64,000 bases of DNA, from NCBI GenBank assembly GCA_001823925.1, contig MHWB01000011.1, forward strand, positions 25,471-89,470, given 5' to 3'. This document shows positions 7,627-41,127 of the stretch, one piece after another. Source of the stretch: Candidatus Zambryskibacteria bacterium RIFCSPLOWO2_01_FULL_39_39 (GTDB taxonomy: Bacteria > Patescibacteriota > Minisyncoccia > Phycocordibacterales > WO2-35-19). The position numbers were made by a program, and so were the translations under genes. Below the pieces are notes generated by a model. The model saw only the letters and a list, made by a program, of their open reading frames with translations. It searched no databases and was not told the origin of the DNA. The number at the start of each line of letters is the position of its first letter. The stretch's first letter is position 1.

Positions 7627-10600
7627 TTATTTAATTTTAATTTTCAATTTATAATTTTCAATTTTCAACTCTTCTCCGTCGTTTTCAGCAAAAATAATTT
7701 CATTTATATTAGTTGGTTTTTTAATTTCCGAAATAACAGAGTTCAAAAATTCTTTACCCACATTGTCCGTCTCCACCAAAAGCTCTATTGCGTCAGCTGG
7801 CATTAAATTTTTATTCTTACGAAGTTCTTGAACAGCTCTTATAAAACTTCTTAGATCACCCTCTTTTTGCAATTCTTTTGTTATTTTTGTGTCCAACTCC
7901 ACTTCTGTTTCTAAATTTTCCTGGAAGATTATTTTTTTAACATTAACTTCATCCTTTATTAATTCCAAATATTCTTCTTTATCTTTCAATTTTAAATCTT
8001 TAATTTTTAATTTACTAAGAGGTTGTCTTACTTTTATATTGGCCGTCATTCTTTTTTCTAACGCTAAAGAAACTGTTTTTCTTACCTCTTGCATCATTTC
8101 CAAAATTTCTGCGAAATGGAGCCCTTCGACTTCGCTCAGGACGGGCCAACTGCAAAGATGGACACTCTCTGGATCATTTGGAAATTTTAATTTCAAATAA
8201 ATATGTTCAGCAAAAAATGGAGTAAGTGGTGCCATATATTTTGCCAATTCTAATAAAACAAAGCGAGTGGTTGAGAGCACATTATTTTTGTCTTTTATGT
8301 CTTCCGATTTAAATCTATCTCTTGAGCGTCTAATATACCAAGTAGAAAAATCTTCAATAAAATTCAGGATGGGACGGGTTGCGCCGTAAATATCACAAAC
8401 ATTAAGTGCTTTGGTTATTTCTTTATGGAGTTCACTTAAGCGAACCAAAATCCATCTGTCCAAAACATGTTCCGACTCTTGATTATTTTCAACAACTTTT
8501 TTGTCAGAATACATTTCATAAAACGAAAGTACATTTTCAAGTTTTAAAATAACTTTTTTTGAAACTTCATCTACCCCTTTTTCAGAAAAATTTAAATCCT
8601 CGGCTTTCATGACCGGAGTTGACATGAGATAATATCTCAAACTATCTGCTCCATATTTATCAACAATAACTGTCGGGTCTTGGTAATTTTTAAGCCTCTT
8701 GCTCATTTTTTTACCATCTTCTGCTAAAACAATGCCGTTGACTACCACATTATTAAAAACTTGTTTTCCAAACAAACTAGTTGCAAAAACATGCTGGTAA
8801 TAAAACCACTTACTAATCTGGTCAAGCCCTTCGGCAATAAAGTCGGCAGGAATACGACTTTCTACTTTTTCTTTATTTTCAAATGGATAATGGTAGGAGG
8901 AAAAAGGCACTGATCCAGAATCAAACCATGTGTCCAAAACATCAGTTACCCTTTTAAAAACTATGCCTTTGTCATTAACCAATTCTACCTCATCTATATA
9001 TGGCCTATGTAAATCAAGTTCGTAATTTTCGTTATGAGGAAGTGGTACAAAATTTAGTTCTCCAAATTCAGCAAACTCTGATTTATGTATTCCTTTTTCT
9101 TTTATTTCAATTGACCTGTTCAAATTTGCCCCCTCCGTCACCATATACATAGCCGCAATCGGACCATCGTGACTCACCAAAAGAATGTTTTTATCAGAAT
9201 ATTTTTTTTCAATATTAAAAAGTAGACCCCCCATTCTCTTATTTAAGTCAAGTAAAGTCTCTCCACCATCAGGTGCTTTTTCAAATCTTTCTCTCATATT
9301 TGCAAACAATTTCCAATATTCATCCCATTTTTTACCTTCAAAATCTGGTCCCTTTTTAAATTCTCCCAGCAAATCATCTACTTTGACATCCTCTTTACTT
9401 AAATCTAAAGCTTGGCGCACAATTTCTGCAGTTTCAAGACATCTTTCAAAAGGAGAAGTAATTATTAAATCAATTTTTTCTTTTTTTATATCTTGGGCAA
9501 CAGTCTGTACTTGCTTTCTACCTTCCTTGGTTAAGGGAAAAATATTTTGGGGATCTGAATTTATAATATCCGAAATATTTTGCTCGGCTTCTCCATGTCT
9601 CATTACAAAATATTTATTGCCAGATTTTTTGGTATATTTTTGTAGCTCTTCAACTGACCCGATCACTAACCTTTCCTCTGTTTTTTCATTTTCCCAAACA
9701 GGAATAGTGTTTGCCCAAAAACGCTGTCTGCTAATAGACCAGTCACGAGCATTTTCTAACCAACTATGCCAACGACCTTCTTTGATGTGTTTTGGTTGCC
9801 AATTTATATTTTCTGCGTACTCAAGAAGATCTTTTTTTATTTTTGAAACTGAAACAAACCAGGAACTGGTGGCATAATTTAAAAGCGGAGTTTCGCACCT
9901 CCAACAGTGTGGGTATGAGTGCTCATATTTTTCCTTAGAGAAAAGGAGATTTTTTTGAGCTAATATTTTCAAAACCTCCACATCAGTTTTTTGTGGATCC
10001 TCTATTGGTTTTACAGAAAGCCCAGCCAAATCGAGAACCTCCGATCTTATAATGCCATCCATACCAACATGTTGAACAAACGGTAATTTTTCTTTTTTAC
10101 CAAGTTCCATATCATCTTCCCCAAAAGCAGGGGCAATATGAACCACCCCCGTACCACTTTCAGTGGTCACGAACGAAGTGGCATAAATCTTCCAACCATT
10201 TTTTCTATTTTCTAATGTCTTACTTTTTGAATAATCATCAAAAATTGGTTTGTAAGATTTGCCAACTAAATCTTTGCCTTTAAACTCTTCAACAATCTCA
10301 AACTTATCCTCTTTAAAAATTTCTTTGAGCTTTTCTTTAATGAGAATAAATCTAGTGAGATTTTCCATGGTCTCATCTTTCTTTTCTATTTTTACATAAA
10401 TAAAATCTGGGTTTACTGCCAAGGCAACATTGCCAGGCAGAGTCCATGGGGTAGTTGTCCAAGCCAAAATAAAAGTATTCGGTTCATCCACTAATTCAAA
10501 TTTAGCTGTTACCGCGATATCTTTAATATCTTTATAGCCTTCTGCTACTTCTGCTTGAGCTAGTGTAGTCTCACAACGCGGACAAATATACATTGATCGA

Positions 10601-11130
10601 TAATCTTTATAAATTAAACCTTTATCAAATAATTTTTTAAAAGCCCACCACTCTGACTCCATATAAGAAGCGTCCATCGTTCGATAAGGACTATCCATAT
10701 TTACCCACCGTCCAAAGCGTGGAATAAACTTATTCCAAACATCGACATAAGTAAAAATTTTATCTCGACAAAGATTATTAAATTTGCCAATTCCTATTTC
10801 TTCAATTTCTTTTTTACTTTTGATACCTAATTCCTTTTCAACAATATTTTCAATTGGTAGACCGTGTGTATCCCAGCCCCACCGCCTCTCAACGAAGCGC
10901 CCCCGCATTGTCTGATAGCGCGGAATCACATCTTTCATAACACTTGCTACCAAGTGGCCATAGTGAGGTGTTCCGGTAGCAAATGGAGGTCCATCATGAA
11001 AAACAAAAGGTTTATTATTTTTTGTTTGCTCTAGAGATTTTTCAAAAATTTTGTTATCTTCCCAGAATTTCAGTATTTCTTCTTCTCTTTCGGCTATTTT
11101 TGACTTTTGGTTTCCCTCTATCATACTCAA
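7627..11130 (-). CDS. ileS: Isoleucyl-tRNA synthetase carrying an internal histidine-phosphatase (PGM-like) domain insertion
   Basis: HYGH and KMSKRL motifs, WCISRQR-like WSISRQRFW. Residues ~505-690 (nt ~9061-9618) are a complete RHG histidine-phosphatase domain (FVMRHGEAEQN ... LVSHDGPI). Confidence 0.9.
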   Translation of the reverse strand: MSMIEGNQKSKIAEREEEILKFWEDNKIFEKSLEQTKNNKPFVFHDGPPFATGTPHYGHLVASVMKDVIPRYQTMRGRFVERRWGWDTHGLPIENIVEKELGIKSKKEIEEIGIGKFNNLCRDKIFTYVDVWNKFIPRFGRWVNMDSPYRTMDASYMESEWWAFKKLFDKGLIYKDYRSMYICPRCETTLAQAEVAEGYKDIKDIAVTAKFELVDEPNTFILAWTTTPWTLPGNVALAVNPDFIYVKIEKKDETMENLTRFILIKEKLKEIFKEDKFEIVEEFKGKDLVGKSYKPIFDDYSKSKTLENRKNGWKIYATSFVTTESGTGVVHIAPAFGEDDMELGKKEKLPFVQHVGMDGIIRSEVLDLAGLSVKPIEDPQKTDVEVLKILAQKNLLFSKEKYEHSYPHCWRCETPLLNYATSSWFVSVSKIKKDLLEYAENINWQPKHIKEGRWHSWLENARDWSISRQRFWANTIPVWENEKTEERLVIGSVEELQKYTKKSGNKYFVMRHGEAEQNISDIINSDPQNIFPLTKEGRKQVQTVAQDIKKEKIDLIITSPFERCLETAEIVRQALDLSKEDVKVDDLLGEFKKGPDFEGKKWDEYWKLFANMRERFEKAPDGGETLLDLNKRMGGLLFNIEKKYSDKNILLVSHDGPIAAMYMVTEGANLNRSIEIKEKGIHKSEFAEFGELNFVPLPHNENYELDLHRPYIDEVELVNDKGIVFKRVTDVLDTWFDSGSVPFSSYHYPFENKEKVESRIPADFIAEGLDQISKWFYYQHVFATSLFGKQVFNNVVVNGIVLAEDGKKMSKRLKNYQDPTVIVDKYGADSLRYYLMSTPVMKAEDLNFSEKGVDEVSKKVILKLENVLSFYEMYSDKKVVENNQESEHVLDRWILVRLSELHKEITKALNVCDIYGATRPILNFIEDFSTWYIRRSRDRFKSEDIKDKNNVLSTTRFVLLELAKYMAPLTPFFAEHIYLKLKFPNDPESVHLCSWPVLSEVEGLHFAEILEMMQEVRKTVSLALEKRMTANIKVRQPLSKLKIKDLKLKDKEEYLELIKDEVNVKKIIFQENLETEVELDTKITKELQKEGDLRSFIRAVQELRKNKNLMPADAIELLVETDNVGKEFLNSVISEIKKPTNINEIIFAENDGEELKIENYKLKIKIK

Positions 11131-11143
11131 AATATAGCATTTT

Positions 11144-12166
11144 CTAATCCTTTTTCAAAAGGTTTTTTATTCTTTCATTTATTTGAGTTTGTAACACAAA
11201 TTGATTTCCATGTTTCAATAAACCGCTATATGACATAAGTGAGCTTACATTTTCATTTTCGTTCAAAGCTTTTACAACTCTCCTCTTTGTCGCAGTCCTC
11301 AAAACTCTGTGGGTTGGGAAATGCCCCCAGCCCAGGAAATCAACACCAGAAGATAAAGTCTTTATGAATACCTTGTTGGGATGAAGCAAAAGTTTTAGAT
11401 TTTCTTCCAAGAATTCACTAATTTTATAAGTAAGTTCCAAAAGGTAGTATTTGTCTGTACTTAGTATCACAAAATCATCTGCATATCTTATATAATATTT
11501 TACTTTCATTTGATGCTTCATCCAACTATCAAACTCATTCATGTATATGTTTACTAAAAGTTGAGATGTTAAATTTCCTAAAGGTAAGCCAACACTTTCT
11601 TTTCTAGAATCAAAACTTTTTATTACTCTCGCGAGCAGCCAAATTATCTCTTTGTCCTCTATGTGTTTGTTTAAAATATTTAAGAGAATGGTTTGATTTA
11701 TAGAAGCAAAGAACTTACGAATATCACACTTTAGAACCCAGCAAGTTTTTGTATTGTTTTTTGATACCTTTCTGCCAAAATCTCTAAATCTATTTATGGC
11801 TCTGTGAGTCCCTTTGTCTAGCCTGCAAGAATATGAATCATGTATAAAAAGTTTATCAAAGTATGGATACAGTATTTTATAGATTGCATGGTGCAAAAGC
11901 CTGTCCCTTACTATTGCCTTATGTATATTGCGAGGTTTGGGGTCTGAAATATTGAAGGCTTTGTAGCCAGCGTGGGTGTAGGTTTTTGTTTGGAGAGAAT
12001 TGTATAAAGAAATTATATTATCAAACAAATTTAACTGAAATTCCTGGGCATCTATTTTGTTTTTCTTTCCATTTAGAAACTCTTCCCAAGCTAGGAGCAG
12101 ATTTTCTATAGAAATGATATCTTTATAGTGAATAGAAGATTTTTTCATTTTATAATTAGAACACAA
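11144..12166 (-). CDS. Reverse transcriptase of a diversity-generating retroelement
   Basis: 340 aa; YADDFVIL motif 5; motif 4 is GLPLGNLTSQLLVNIYM (SQ in place of SP, the DGR RT hallmark). Confidence 0.85.
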   Translation of the reverse strand: MCSNYKMKKSSIHYKDIISIENLLLAWEEFLNGKKNKIDAQEFQLNLFDNIISLYNSLQTKTYTHAGYKAFNISDPKPRNIHKAIVRDRLLHHAIYKILYPYFDKLFIHDSYSCRLDKGTHRAINRFRDFGRKVSKNNTKTCWVLKCDIRKFFASINQTILLNILNKHIEDKEIIWLLARVIKSFDSRKESVGLPLGNLTSQLLVNIYMNEFDSWMKHQMKVKYYIRYADDFVILSTDKYYLLELTYKISEFLEENLKLLLHPNKVFIKTLSSGVDFLGWGHFPTHRVLRTATKRRVVKALNENENVSSLMSYSGLLKHGNQFVLQTQINERIKNLLKKD

Positions 12167-12182
12167 AAATTATTCCTATGAA

Positions 12183-12193
12183 CCCCCCCCCCC
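12183..12193. repeat. Homopolymeric C11 tract in the 46-bp divergent region between the RT and avd starts
   Basis: aacccccccccccgc read directly; the surrounding genome is AT-rich. Confidence 0.9.
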
Positions 12194-12212
12194 GCAATTA
12201 CAAGCAAAAAAT

Positions 12213-12572
12213 TTGGTGCCTGTGGTAATAAAATTGAAGGATAGTTATAAACTGTGGCAAGTTCTTTTAGCAATTCTACCCAAGACTTTGCGATATTCTA
12301 TGGGAATAAAAATAGATTCTCTTTTTGTTGAAGTGATAGAATACACATCCATGGCCAGCTTTTTAGAAAAAAGTGAGAAGTTGCCATATTTGAAAGTAGC
12401 TATAAGAAAAATAGATACTATAAAAATACTTCTTATGATTGTCTGGGAAAATAGAGGAATTGATGACAAAAAGTACATAACTATTTCTGAATCACTAAAT
12501 GAAGTGGGTAAAATGCTTGGTGGATGGAGCGGACAGCTTATAAAATCAGCCTCCGTTAAAACTTCGGCCTGA
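12213..12572 (+). CDS. avd: Four-helix-bundle protein of the 23S rRNA-IVS family; putative DGR accessory variability determinant (Avd)
   Basis: 119 aa; C-terminal ISESLNEVGKMLGGW matches the four-helix-bundle/Avd family; adjacent to RT and TR1. Confidence 0.55.
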   Translation: MVPVVIKLKDSYKLWQVLLAILPKTLRYSMGIKIDSLFVEVIEYTSMASFLEKSEKLPYLKVAIRKIDTIKILLMIVWENRGIDDKKYITISESLNEVGKMLGGWSGQLIKSASVKTSA

Positions 12573-12583
12573 CAAAGCAAAAC

Positions 12584-12604
12584 TCTCCCAAGAAATAGGG
12601 AGAG
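12584..12604. other. GC hairpin (ctctccc-aagaaata-gggagag) directly 3' of TR1 in the minus-strand RNA sense
   Basis: 7-bp perfect stem, followed on the minus strand by a U-rich run. Confidence 0.5.
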
Positions 12605-12616
12605 AAATGAAGAGAG

Positions 12617-12717
12617 TTGCGACGCCCCGCAAACCAGATATTGCCATTCCAGTTGCTGTCGTTACTGTTCACATTGACCTTGCGCTCATCACCGTTCCGG
12701 TTGAAGTAGACGTAACT
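12617..12717 (-). repeat. DGR template repeat TR1
   Basis: 101 bp, homologous to 13072-13172. All ~20 mismatches have T on the + strand here (A in the minus-strand sense). In-frame translation is Asn-rich. Confidence 0.85.
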
Positions 12718-12983
12718 CTGTACAAAAAACCCTCTATGCCACCACCCCTTGAAATTTTTTTAAAATAACTCGGAGTTGAATTTTATTTCGCATCATAATG
12801 CGATGGTATTCTGTACCAAGTATCTTCATTTTTTATTGAAGTTTCTACATACACCACCCTACCAAAAACCGTGATCCCCGATATTCTCGATGTATGAATA
12901 CTGGATTCGGTGGCAAGCATCCATAAACACTTGCTGATATTCACCTACTACCATATTTATATTAGCAAAATTTTGATAAATAG

Positions 12984-13015
12984 AAATCCCCATCCGCCGA
13001 AACGGGTGGGGATTT
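12984..13015. other. 13-bp-stem GC hairpin ~55 bp downstream of VR1 (minus sense); candidate DGR target-recognition hairpin/cruciform
   Basis: aaatccccatccg-ccgaaa-cgggtggggattt; one G-U pair. Confidence 0.6.
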
Positions 13016-13067
13016 GAAGGACAAAGTCCAAAGGATCCGAAAGACCCAAATGGACAAGTCCGAAGAT

Positions 13068-13682
13068 CTACTTGCGACGCCCCGCAAACCAGAGAGAGCC
13101 AAGCCAGAAGCTGACGAGACTGTCCACATGGACCTTGCGCCCATCACCGCGCCGGTAGAAGTAGACGTAACTGTTCTTTGCCCACTGCATCCCGTTGGGA
13201 TGTTTATCGGCAAAAGCCTGGTCATCTGCATTCACCTGCATTTGGGCTGCGTAGTCCGGGACAAGCCCACGTTCCTCAAACACTCGTGAAATGTCGGCGA
13301 CAGGGGTGTCTTTCTCGAGCGGGAAGAAGAGTAGGTCACCTTCTTCCGGGCCGTCCATGGGCATAGTCGCGAGGACTGTCTCGTCGACGTACCATGGTAC
13401 ACGATTGCAAGCAGAAAGTAATTGAGCCGGAGTTTTCGTCCGATCCACCTTGAAGTGGCGGATGATCACTTTAGCACGATGCTCGACGCGAGTTTTCAAC
13501 GACTCGATAAACTCTGCAATGAGTTCCTCCATCTCGTCATCTGAAACGCCTTGCACTATGTCTTTTGGGAAATTGGTACCGGCTTTCGGAAACTTGGCGA
13601 CAAATCGATCACCAATCTGTCGTGCCTGTTCCTGGGTCATTGTTTCTGTGGTTGCAATGGTTTTTTGTTCCATCGGTTGCAC
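13068..13682 (-). CDS. DGR variable target protein 1; VR at the extreme C-terminus; GC-rich gene; no signal peptide
   Basis: 204 aa; the C-terminal 34 codons are VR1; GC clearly higher than the flanks. Confidence 0.8.
   Translation of the reverse strand: MQPMEQKTIATTETMTQEQARQIGDRFVAKFPKAGTNFPKDIVQGVSDDEMEELIAEFIESLKTRVEHRAKVIIRHFKVDRTKTPAQLLSACNRVPWYVDETVLATMPMDGPEEGDLLFFPLEKDTPVADISRVFEERGLVPDYAAQMQVNADDQAFADKHPNGMQWAKNSYVYFYRRGDGRKVHVDSLVSFWLGSLWFAGRRK
13072..13172 (-). repeat. DGR variable repeat VR1
   Basis: Pairs with TR1; differs only at TR adenine positions; sits at the 3' end of the target ORF. The IMH-like end tttgcggggcgtcgcaa is shared with TR1. Confidence 0.85.
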
Positions 13683-13816
13683 TACTTTCTCAAAGAAAAT
13701 ACAGGTTGTATTAGGCTTTTAGGCCTCCTGCACTCCATATCAATTATACCATATCTAATATTTAAATGCAAGGATTTGTGGTGATACCGCTTAAAATAAG
13801 CCATATTTCAACCAAT

Positions 13817-13848
13817 TACACTGTCTTTACGGTCGTAAGAAGAGTGTA
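13817..13848. repeat. 32-bp near-palindromic element tacactgtctttacggtcgtaagaagagtgta (copy 1). Sits ~135 bp upstream (minus sense) of DGR target gene 1.
   Basis: Identical to 14438-14469. Confidence 0.8.
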
Positions 13849-13850
13849 GT

Positions 13851-14426
13851 TTATTTTTTAGGAAGTTTAAAATATTTACGGAGCCAATCGTCATTTTCAA
13901 TTAATTCAACTGTCATATAAATAACATCGTCCCCTATTTCTAAATAAGTTTTTAAAAGATTGATCGCCCCTTCACATGGGTATGGATAGACCCAAACACT
14001 ATTTTGTAATCTTACAAATCCAAATTTTAAAAGCATATATCTCAGATCATCTCGTGAAAATCTTAAATTTTCTTTTATATCAAAGATAACTACTCTATAT
14101 TTTCCATCCCATTTTTTGGGTTTTTGTTTTGCCAAACCTTCAAATTCAAATTTAAGAAGTGATTTCTTACCCTCTGGAGTTAACTTGGCATATTTTTCTC
14201 CACTGGCTTTAGTAATCGTCTCAATCAGACCCCTTTTATAAAGTTTCTTTATTGCTGTATCAATATAATATTTTTGTCTATCTTCTCTTTTTTTATCAAG
14301 ATTAAGAAGTCTCAAAGCTTGCAGAGCATTGGGAGCAATCAAAGCAAAACTCATAAGAGCCGAGAGTCCAATGACCGCAAGTATTATATTTCTTACTGGT
14401 ATCCTTTCACCATAATCGTCTTTCAT
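13851..14426 (-). CDS. PaaX-like regulator: N-terminal TM, wHTH, C-terminal PaaX_C/Cas2-like fold
   Basis: WDGKYRVVIFDIKENLRFSRDDLRYMLLKFGFVRLQNSVWVYP resembles the PaaX family C-terminal motif. Confidence 0.4.
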   Translation of the reverse strand: MKDDYGERIPVRNIILAVIGLSALMSFALIAPNALQALRLLNLDKKREDRQKYYIDTAIKKLYKRGLIETITKASGEKYAKLTPEGKKSLLKFEFEGLAKQKPKKWDGKYRVVIFDIKENLRFSRDDLRYMLLKFGFVRLQNSVWVYPYPCEGAINLLKTYLEIGDDVIYMTVELIENDDWLRKYFKLPKK

Positions 14427-14437
14427 AATTTACATTA

Positions 14438-14469
14438 TACACTGTCTTTACGGTCGTAAGAAGAGTGTA
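14438..14469. repeat. 32-bp near-palindromic element (copy 2), 12 bp upstream of the PaaX-like gene start; includes a TGTATAAT -10-like motif on the minus strand
   Basis: Identical to 13817-13848. Confidence 0.8.
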
Positions 14470-14505
14470 ATCGAGGGGTATTGAAAATTATTAAGATTAT
14501 AAAAA

Positions 14506-15321
14506 TTAAGAAAGTACTTTTTTTGCTTCTTCAAATTCTTTCGGCAGAGGAGATTCTACTGTTATGTGGGTACCAGAAGGAAGTTGTAACTTTATAGATA
14601 ATGCATGTAAAGCAAGCCTATCAAACCCTAATATTTTTTCTTCTCCATCTTTCGTATTTCGCCTGCCCGAATGACTCGGTCGGGCGGGTATTTCGTATTT
14701 CTGTTTTCGCCCGTATAGTTTATCCATAAGTACCGGATGACTTATTGATTTCAAGTGTACTCTGATTTGATGTGTCCTCCCCGTCTTAGGTCTAACTTCA
14801 AGATACGCAAAATATTCTCCCTCAATTTCTTTTTGAAATAAAACTTTATACTCTGTAACTGCCTCTCGGAGCTCCCCCTTTGCGCCATGCTCTGCAGACC
14901 ATTTTCGGAAATCTGAAGCGCTCCGACCAATTGGAGCATCTATCCTCCCCTCTATTTTGCCTGTCCTGAGCAAAGTCGAAGGATCGGCTCCAAATTTTCC
15001 CCAAACAACTGCATTATAAATTTTTTCTACTTTTCTATTTTGAAACTGCTCTTTCAAAAACTGATGAGCTTCTTTGGTTTTTGCCACAAGTATTACCCCG
15101 CTTGTATCTCTATCCAACCTATGCACAATACCAGGCCTCTTTATAACCTCTCCATTTTGGAGAGTTTGAGGCTCCCCCACTTCTTTCAAATACGGATAAT
15201 CCTCGTTTAGCCGATCTACTAAAGTAGGGTTCTTGCTCCTCCCATCAGAGTGCACCAAAAGCCCACTTGGCTTGTCTAAAGCTAATATATATTCATCTTC
15301 GTATAATACTTTTATTTCCAT
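14506..15321 (-). CDS. RluA-family pseudouridine synthase (RluD/RluC-like)
   Basis: HRLDRDTSGVILVAKT catalytic motif; RTHQIRVHL. Confidence 0.85.
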   Translation of the reverse strand: MEIKVLYEDEYILALDKPSGLLVHSDGRSKNPTLVDRLNEDYPYLKEVGEPQTLQNGEVIKRPGIVHRLDRDTSGVILVAKTKEAHQFLKEQFQNRKVEKIYNAVVWGKFGADPSTLLRTGKIEGRIDAPIGRSASDFRKWSAEHGAKGELREAVTEYKVLFQKEIEGEYFAYLEVRPKTGRTHQIRVHLKSISHPVLMDKLYGRKQKYEIPARPSHSGRRNTKDGEEKILGFDRLALHALSIKLQLPSGTHITVESPLPKEFEEAKKVLS

Positions 15322-39891: not shown

Positions 39892-41127
39892 TTAATTTGA
39901 TTTTATAATTACAAAAGTTTTCTTGCCTATTTTTATTTTTCTTTCTCCCCCCCCCACCACTTCATTGAAATCACTTATTTTTTTATCCGGCAAACTTGTT
40001 TGATCCGATACCGCGCCAGCCTCTATCAAGCGACGAAATTCTGATTTTGATTCTATAGTTTTATCGTTGACCAAAATGTCTATCATTTTTTCTGCTTTCG
40101 ATGCATTTATCACCCGAGCATCTTCCGGAAATTCGCCCTTACCAAAGGTACTCTCAAAATTTTCCCCTGCTCTTTCAGCTTCTTTTTCTCCGTGGTACAT
40201 CTTTACTATTTCTTTGGCTAATTTCATTTTTATATCTTTGGGATTAAGGCCACCAGCAAGCTTTTTTGACATCTCTTTTATATCATCCAGAGAAACATCG
40301 GTAATCATCTCAAAACCACTAATTATAAGGTCATCGTTCCAACTCATTACTTTACCAAACATATCTTCGGGGGTTTGATCTAAGGAAACCATATTACCTT
40401 CGGTCTTACCCATTTTGCTACCACTAGAATCAATTAAAAGTTTGGTGGTCAAAACAAATTTTTCTTTGTTTTTTAAAGTCTTCATCAAATCTCTTCCAAC
40501 AAGCATATTAAAGGTTTGATCGTTACCGCCCACCTCACCATCCACATCCATAGCCACACTGTCATAACCCTGCATAAGCGGGTACATTAATTCATGAATG
40601 TAAACAGATTTTTCATCTTGTTCCCTGCGACGGAACATTTCTCTTTTCATCATTTGCTCCACCGTTGCTTGTGAGGCCAACTCTAAAACATCAAAAAGGG
40701 TCATCTTGCCAAACCACTCTGAATTGTATTTAATTGTGGCAGGATTAGTCCCACCAAAATCAATAAACTTTGAGGCCTGCTTCTTGTATTCCTTGAGATT
40801 ATTTAAAATCTCATTATGGGTCAGTTTTTTGCGAACTGCCGTTTTATCCGTAGGATCGCCAATCATAGCAGTAAAATCGCCCATAAGTAGTATAATTTGA
40901 TGACCAAGTTTTTGGAATTCTCCTAATTTTTTAAGTGGAATAACGTGGCCCAAGTGTAGGGTTTCGCCGGTTGGATCGATACCTAAATACAAAGAGAGTC
41001 TTTCTCCTTTTATTAATCTCGCTTTTAGAAAATTAAAATTGGGAAATATATTTTCTACCCCCCTCTTTAAAAGTTCATCTACTTTTTCTTCGTCAACTAT
41101 TACTTTTGATTTAGTAAGCCCAAACAT
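39892..41127 (-). CDS. tyrS: Tyrosyl-tRNA synthetase
   Basis: HIGH motif (LHLGH); KMGKTEG (KMSKS); C-terminal S4-like domain. Confidence 0.9.
   Translation of the reverse strand: MFGLTKSKVIVDEEKVDELLKRGVENIFPNFNFLKARLIKGERLSLYLGIDPTGETLHLGHVIPLKKLGEFQKLGHQIILLMGDFTAMIGDPTDKTAVRKKLTHNEILNNLKEYKKQASKFIDFGGTNPATIKYNSEWFGKMTLFDVLELASQATVEQMMKREMFRRREQDEKSVYIHELMYPLMQGYDSVAMDVDGEVGGNDQTFNMLVGRDLMKTLKNKEKFVLTTKLLIDSSGSKMGKTEGNMVSLDQTPEDMFGKVMSWNDDLIISGFEMITDVSLDDIKEMSKKLAGGLNPKDIKMKLAKEIVKMYHGEKEAERAGENFESTFGKGEFPEDARVINASKAEKMIDILVNDKTIESKSEFRRLIEAGAVSDQTSLPDKKISDFNEVVGGGERKIKIGKKTFVIIKSN

Follow-up and report, generated by a model that had tools for sequence, protein, structure and literature searches.

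A length-variable poly-C tract in the 5' coding region of avd as a proposed frameshift switch of diversity-generating retroelements in Patescibacteria

Diversity-generating retroelements (DGRs) are especially abundant in CPR bacteria and, to our knowledge, the control of their activity is largely unknown. The 64,000-nt stretch of DNA analyzed here, which we refer to as the window, carries a run of 11 C residues close to the 5' ends of two divergently oriented DGR genes, which encode the reverse transcriptase (RT) and Avd. The question that this locus raises is what the run does there. The original prediction regarded it as an intergenic element prone to slippage which, by altering the distance between the -35 and -10 promoter elements of one or both genes, could turn hypermutation on or off.

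The locus is a genuine DGR of Candidatus Zambryskibacteria (Patescibacteria/CPR), whose parts are listed in Table 1. The template repeat (TR) and the variable repeat (VR) differ by 16 mismatches, each at an adenine of the TR as read on the minus strand. The avd gene is inverted and located between the TR and the RT gene. The RT, called from ATG 12148, was retrieved by exact-protein look-up as an identical 334-aa protein on 27 public contigs, and the exact-protein matches to the locus belong to Candidatus Zambryskibacteria or Parcubacteria GW2011_GWA1_38_7 genomes from aquifer metagenomes. The Avd body matches the Pfam family bAvd (PF22296) with an E value of 1.9e-7 and a score of 32 bits, below the curated cut-off of 40 bits; 360 Avd homologues were found, and a PF22296 assignment is precomputed for nearly all of those among the 120 matches listed. 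Comparison of an Avd profile with the sequences of solved structures gave no match, and no Pfam match was obtained for the DGR target gene.

Table 1. Features of the DGR locus, with positions counted from the first nucleotide of the window
Feature	Position	Strand	Description
DGR reverse transcriptase (RT), 334 aa	11144..12148	-	Pfam RVT_1, E = 3.7e-25; divergent from avd
Gap between RT ATG and avd ATG, 29 nt, non-coding	12149..12177	.	candidate -10 elements for avd and RT
avd upstream part, C11 allele	12178..12228	+	putative start ATG 12178; 16-codon ORF MNPPPRNYKQKIWCLW; stop TAA 12226-12228
Poly-C tract, C11 in the window	12183..12193	+	avd Pro-Pro-Pro codons; 2 nt over for the reading frame
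Avd body, four-helix bundle (predicted)	12213..12572	+	open from TTG 12213 / GTG 12216; out-of-frame remainder of avd in the window
G+C-rich hairpin followed by a T-run	12583..12604	-	terminator-like site, directly 3' of TR
Template repeat (TR)	12617..12717	-	101-nt repeat, 84% identical to VR
Variable repeat (VR)	13072..13172	-	3' end of the target gene
DGR target gene, 204-aa ORF	13068..13682	-	public calls of 190-204 aa; VR encodes the C terminus

Some further features of the locus and its surroundings are worth recording. The hairpin and its T-run converge on the 3' end of the inverted avd. A search of Rfam over the locus returned only sub-threshold matches, to RT-7 (E = 0.016) and RT-16 (E = 0.62), which are unrelated to the tract; they lie at 12707-12890 on the minus strand, just 5' of the TR and on the strand of the TR and the RT, and this region may be part of the DGR RNA. 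Many Avd homologues carry a conserved C-terminal tail, KQNSPxKxGEK, which is missing from the Avd of the window and which could be the trace of a nucleic-acid element on the opposite strand. The isoleucyl-tRNA synthetase (IleRS) encoded beside the cassette (7627-11130, minus strand, about 1165 aa) features an inserted histidine-phosphatase (His_Phos_1) domain.

The run of C residues is preceded by AA and followed by G. It is the longest G/C homopolymer of the window, the G+C content of which is 37%, and it is followed in length by a C9 run at 39947-39955 and a C7 run at 1110-1116, with no G run exceeding 6 nt. If bases are taken as independent, 0.001 C runs of at least 11 nt are expected in the window, and a first-order Markov model gives 0.013, so that the original prediction was right in describing the run as a C11 at 12183-12193 in a genome where long G/C tracts are rare. 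It was also right in considering the RT and avd genes as divergent; the starts that it took for them, TTG 12166 and TTG 12213, are instead probably both wrong, and with them falls the placement of the tract between the two genes. Since the RT starts at ATG 12148 and avd is deemed to start at ATG 12178, which is found 3 nt 5' of the C-run, the tract is located within avd, downstream of its start codon.

The reading frame that opens at ATG 12178 depends on the length of the run. With nine C residues, the sequence ATG AAC CCC CCC CCG CAA (MNPPPQLQAKN) continues in frame into the Avd body and encodes 130 aa, and this identical 130-aa Avd (P0001) is annotated on 14 public contigs. With ten residues translation from the same ATG stops after 21 codons, and with eleven, as in the window, after 16, and in both cases the Avd body is out of frame. 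That the run encodes Pro codons 3 to 5 of avd, beginning at codon 2-3, follows from the near-invariant N-terminal PP(P) that Avd homologues share at the tract site: 24 homologues were inspected individually, and in an alignment of 21 homologues two prolines that shortly precede the LLPVL with which helix 1 begins are conserved to at least 90%. AlphaFold models the 130-aa Avd (pLDDT 89.8) as four helices that span residues 13-126, preceded by a disordered stretch (residues 1-12), so that the tract is predicted to encode part of a floppy N-terminal tail. The repeat would therefore sit in a region of the protein that is tolerant of changes in length.

The same arrangement recurs in the family. 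We inspected 80 of the roughly 550 homologous loci retrieved by a scan of species-representative genomes; these 80 loci encode Avd proteins of 50-62% amino acid identity and are distributed over many Patescibacteria lineages. An RT homologue was identified in 74 of the 80 loci, divergent from avd in every one. A run of 6 to 12 C residues occupies exactly the tract site, again in 74 of the 80 loci, and the Pro codons there are almost always CCC. After dereplication to 69 loci, the lengths are distributed as one C6, three C7, eight C8, 22 C9, 24 C10, nine C11 and two C12. CCC accounts for 18% of the Pro codons in the window and for 20% in the homologous loci, and no other C or G run of at least 8 nt was detected in 375 kb of homologous loci. 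Two loci harbor a tetranucleotide array at the tract site, namely, (GCCA)8 at about 2470-2510 in L040, which is off by one nucleotide from the frame of the leader ATG, and (AACC)7 at about 2470-2505 in L065, which is in frame with it. In the remaining loci without a run, the PPP is encoded by CCG CCG CCG (L056), the run is lost (L029 and L037) or the locus is truncated (L045). The fact that different repeat types share the site, together with the strong retention of the disfavored CCC codon, argues that mutability itself is conserved.

The homologous loci also bear on where avd begins. Within the 12 codons 3' of the tract, an ATG is present in only 3 of the 69 loci, and 18 of the 69 have no ATG, GTG or TTG there. 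The leader ATG upstream of the site is in frame with Avd where there is no slippery run, that is, in L029 and L037, in L056 with its CCG CCG CCG and in L015 with its C6. In 28 of the 69 loci an Arg, encoded by five different codons, follows the Pro run. RT codons 1-8 and the avd leader (M..LN..H...) overlap in antisense in most homologues, and TTA, CTA and TCA, which would be stops in the antisense leader, are depleted in RT codons 2-8 (3 of 259, versus 4.0% elsewhere in RT; P = 0.007). Taken together, these sequence features point to an avd start upstream of the tract, at ATG 12178 in the window, and to the TTG 12213 call as probably wrong. The conserved leader peptide was set aside as coding evidence, since a leader that is antisense to RT codons 1-8 does not provide independent evidence. 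Internal initiation at TTG 12213 or GTG 12216, just before helix 1, could nevertheless yield a complete four-helix Avd from the C10 and C11 alleles.

Is the length of the tract variable in nature? Contigs from different samples, found by exact RT protein look-up and on which avd is called at 130, 118 or 90 aa, harbor C9 (L001, L004, L005 and L007), C10 (L002, L006, L008 and L009) or C11 (the window and L003) between identical flanks. Over 4.8 kb (9744-14543), nine of these sequences show no difference other than the length of the tract; L005 was left out of this comparison as a strain divergent in the flanking genes. By exact protein, the RT is found on 27 contigs, the in-frame 130-aa Avd on 14 and the out-of-frame avd calls on 20 (17, 2 and 1), and no C12 or C6 form of avd was present among the exact-protein contig look-ups in this species. 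As a control we considered the C9 run at 39947-39955, which lies inside tyrS: the exact 411-aa tyrosyl-tRNA synthetase is found on 27 contigs, compared with 28 for the neighboring genes. This run corresponds to GGG codons near the C terminus of the enzyme. A scan of JGI metagenomes for the DNA pattern of the tract and its flanks added one contig (L009, C10), and the same pattern had no match among GTDB species representatives.

Polymorphism is not confined to this species. Three of four other populations are polymorphic at the tract, with C8/C9, C10/C11 and C6/C7, the last being found in the closest sister lineage, where C6 is out of frame and C7 in frame. The fourth population, from another species, is invariant, with a C10 at the homologous site in all of the 7 assemblies compared. 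The look-ups for the C10-invariant, C8/C9 and C10/C11 populations are blind to in-frame alleles, so that the frequencies of the states are biased. The search for tract-length heterogeneity among related genomes, which had been suggested as a check, thus gives a positive answer, and the occurrence of C9, C10 and C11 in otherwise identical assemblies supports the core of the original prediction, namely, a slippage-prone element of variable length able to switch the DGR. Assemblies with avd in frame and assemblies with avd out of frame, nine in all, share one and the same VR consensus. At this level the state of the tract and diversification show no visible association, and ongoing VR diversification, a criterion applied to DGRs, is not seen across these assemblies.

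In L005 (ERZ28564339), the DGR cassette (RT, avd, TR, VR and target) is 100% identical to that of the window over the compared interval, 9600-14500, and the IleRS gene beside it has 10 to 88 differences per 200 bp, which suggests either that the cassette has recently passed from one strain to another or that the assembly is chimeric. A 32-bp perfect direct repeat with palindromic ends, TACACTGTCTTTACGGTCGTAAGAAGAGTGTA, is present at 13817-13848 and 14438-14469 and flanks a 191-aa PaaX_M/Cas2-like gene (13851-14426); L005 differs from the window exactly in the bracketed interval. In the Hainich groundwater contigs L104-L107, an Avd homologue with a C10 or C11 tract has no RT called alongside, with about 900 nt upstream of avd without a gene call, and this locus may be a degraded or rearranged DGR.

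Across species, the frame of the leader relative to the Avd body is also variable. Among the 55 species in which the leader ATG lies in a single frame, this frame matches that of Avd in 16, would be restored by +1 nt in 14 and by +2/-1 nt in 25, a distribution that is not different from uniform (P = 0.15). This pattern fits a fast-switching repeat sampled at random and, taken by itself, also fits the irrelevance of frame; the in-frame share, only about 29% of the species, is likewise expected if frame is irrelevant, for example, if recoding supplies Avd. Since rapid switching and frame irrelevance are inseparable in it, we set the cross-species tally aside as a test between models.

According to our analysis, the C-run is probably a hypermutable frameshift contingency switch in the 5' coding region of avd, which gates targeted hypermutation. 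As far as its sequence goes, the tract qualifies as a contingency locus by the length of the repeat, its 5' coding position, its polymorphism among identical genomes and its consequence for the reading frame. In the proposed mechanism, translation would begin at ATG 12178 and the run would be read as Pro codons in the disordered N-terminal tail, while slipped-strand mispairing during replication, the likely cause of the observed polymorphism, would add or remove a single C. A C9 tract (and, by frame arithmetic, also C12 or C6, neither of which was observed) would place the start codon and the Avd body in one frame, corresponding to an ON state. With C10 or with C11, the state of the window, translation would end after the truncated leader and the gene would be OFF or strongly reduced; we infer that the out-of-frame alleles lack a functional Avd. 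Cells of one clone would then differ, reversibly and at random, in the presence of full-length Avd, and their DGR would be able or unable to mutagenize its target. In the reconstituted DGR of the Bordetella phage BPP-1, avd nonsense mutants abolish retrohoming (PMC12875486). By analogy, since retrohoming requires Avd in that system, the DGR described here would switch stochastically, its activity following the state of Avd, and the arrangement would have been kept by selection for switching.

The spacing mechanism of the original prediction requires the tract to lie in the spacer or in the upstream region of the promoter of RT, of avd or of both, where its length would tune transcription instead of translation. 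For the window this reading is unsupported, given that the ATG precedes a tract which encodes PP(P) and sets the frame. The gap between the two ATG codons holds a candidate -10 element of avd, TATAAT at 12151-12156 (plus strand), and one of RT, TGtTCTAAT at 12163->12155 (minus strand). The putative RT -10 element, together with a -35-like TTCATA at 12182->12177, lies between the tract and the RT ATG, and the tract would therefore be upstream of the candidate RT -35 element and outside the spacer; the candidate -10 and the RT ATG are 20 to 35 nt from the tract. A sigma-70 promoter scan of 11900-12900 detected no site in the RT/avd intergenic region and none spanning the tract.

The homologues are more favorable to a spacer effect. 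In most of them, the poly-G of the RT strand abuts a TAnnnT (T 81%, A 62%, T 70%) placed 7 nt before the RT ATG, which is found 13 nt from the tract in 27 to 29 loci, and a TGG(C/T)AA located 5 to 8 nt beyond the tract would leave spacers of 15 to 20 nt. The family consensus, taken from the 64 nt upstream of the tract in loci L012-L091, is TGaTATnaT-N7-ATG 5' of the avd leader ATG and Gn-TAnnnT-N7-ATG on the RT strand. Judging from these consensuses, the homologues look like two back-to-back promoters of the leaderless type, with mRNAs and coding regions that overlap antisense over about 24 nt. The geometry is common in the genome: a TAnnnT is found 5 to 9 nt 5' of 19 of the 49 ORF starts of the window, versus 13.5% of all ATG codons (P about 1e-5), and Shine-Dalgarno-like motifs occur at only 5 of the 49. 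This suggests that leaderless mRNAs are widespread in the Zambryskibacteria genome and that the avd mRNA may be leaderless as well, beginning at the leader ATG. The strict form TGnTAnnnT-N7-ATG occurs 5 times in the window versus 2.5 expected, which is not significant. The poly-G was also considered as a Shine-Dalgarno sequence of RT and set aside, with a spacing of 13 nt and such motifs being rare in the genome. Against a role as a spacer, the TGGYAA motif is the antisense of conserved Leu-Pro codons, the tetranucleotide arrays of L040 and L065, at 28 to 32 nt, are too long for one, and where the tract is missing the leader is still in frame, as expected of a coding role and not of a spacer. 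We deem control through promoter spacing quite unlikely as the explanation of the tract. In the homologues, a spacer effect on RT is conceivable on the basis of these motifs, and there it and a frame switch are not mutually exclusive.

Three other explanations keep the run in the coding region or question its variability. Recoding could be constitutive, through ribosomal frameshifting at CCC-C or through RNA polymerase slippage, with the tract being an attenuator that keeps Avd low. Shifts of +1 occur readily where tRNA-Pro reads CCC-C, and ribosomes stall on PPP; the commonest frame class (25 of 55) is the one that needs a +1 ribosomal shift; and the RT, TR and Avd bodies are intact even though avd is out of frame in 39 of the 55 species and on most contigs of the window species. 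However, programmed frameshifting normally has one fixed direction, whereas all three frame relations are close to uniform here; tetranucleotide repeats such as those found at the tract site are not known to act in recoding, the best documented cases of RNA polymerase slippage are on A/T runs, and the polymorphism is directly observed in the DNA. On balance, recoding appears unlikely. The run might instead merely encode PPP and be a neutral hot spot, where slippage is non-adaptive and the out-of-frame alleles are pseudogenes of disused DGRs. The identity of the VR in all assemblies of the species and the prevalence of out-of-frame alleles agree with such decay, which we nevertheless hold to be very unlikely: CCC, in spite of making up only about 20% of Pro codons, is kept across 69 dereplicated lineages, where one synonymous change would stop slippage, different repeat types occur at one site, the RT and the Avd body are open everywhere, and one clone holds alleles of both kinds, in frame and out of frame. 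Least probable is that the length of a constant tract has been mis-called during sequencing or assembly. Long G/C homopolymers are indeed error-prone on short-read platforms, and the data are metagenome assemblies produced by several different assemblers; on the other side, the length of the control C9 in tyrS is constant on 27 of about 28 contigs, the C10 of the other species is the same in all 7 independent assemblies, no other difference accompanies the length changes over 4.8 kb, and even a short C6/C7 tract is polymorphic.

The frameshift switch in avd is thus the reading that we favor for the window. To the broader proposal, that a large Patescibacteria (CPR) clade of DGRs has a built-in stochastic switch acting cell by cell through a poly-C or tetranucleotide repeat in avd, and possibly co-regulating RT, we assign an even chance. 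The repeat may co-regulate both divergent genes because it abuts the candidate RT promoter in most members.

If this is true, a conserved slippery repeat in avd would provide a simple, heritable and reversible control of DGR activity, through which the target protein would stay fixed in most cells and be diversified in a minority of them. This would be a case of second-order evolvability, with one localized mutator gating another. Phase variation by repeats, which is known chiefly from host-adapted pathogens, would then also operate in groundwater bacteria that have not been cultivated and would act on a mutagenesis system. There is also a consequence for annotation. In about 70% of the species, the start codon of the assembled avd is not in frame with the body of the gene; automated calls therefore truncate the gene (to 90, 118 or 119 aa, versus 130 aa here), and surveys may misjudge which DGRs are complete or active.

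We found no report linking a DGR or avd to a homopolymer, a simple repeat or phase variation in the literature searched, outside which lies the survey of CPR DGRs by Paul et al. 2017, and repeat-based control of avd is described neither for BPP-1 nor in the DGR literature covered, which included a large survey (PMC5758913) and a recent mechanistic paper (PMC12875486). What would be new is a known switching mechanism placed on a known mutagenesis system, a combination which, like its breadth, is undescribed in the literature searched. The canonical DGR of the Bordetella phage BPP-1 has the order avd-TR-brt (PMC12875486 and PMC5758913). The locus of the window resembles it in the presence of RT, Avd, TR and VR, in the adenine-specific differences between TR and VR and in the position of the VR at the 3' end of the target gene; it departs from it in the inversion of avd between the TR and RT and in the back-to-back arrangement of the 5' ends of RT and avd, which overlap in most homologues.

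Repeats that switch promoters are represented by the TA repeats between the divergent hifA and hifB promoters of Haemophilus influenzae, by the poly-G/C spacers of porA and opc in Neisseria and by the poly-C of the Bordetella fim genes. As in these systems, the avd repeat lies between, or overlaps, two divergent genes, and in the homologues it abuts a -10-like element of RT; unlike in them, it is translated and sets the frame, and the tract of the window lies outside the candidate -35/-10 spacer.

Closer counterparts are contingency loci that lie within genes and consist of poly-G/C or tetranucleotide repeats, in Campylobacter jejuni, Neisseria and Haemophilus; these undergo phase variation by slipped-strand mispairing (e.g., PMC4965091, PMC3315296 and PMC11868660). 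The avd tract differs from these in that it belongs to a component of a hypermutation machine and not to a surface structure or a restriction-modification enzyme, and in that its hosts are free-living or episymbiotic groundwater Patescibacteria and not host-adapted pathogens. It shares with them a G/C run of at least 7 nt near the 5' end of the ORF, single-base changes in length that flip the reading frame among genomes that are otherwise the same, and orthologues that carry a mononucleotide or a tetranucleotide repeat at the same site.
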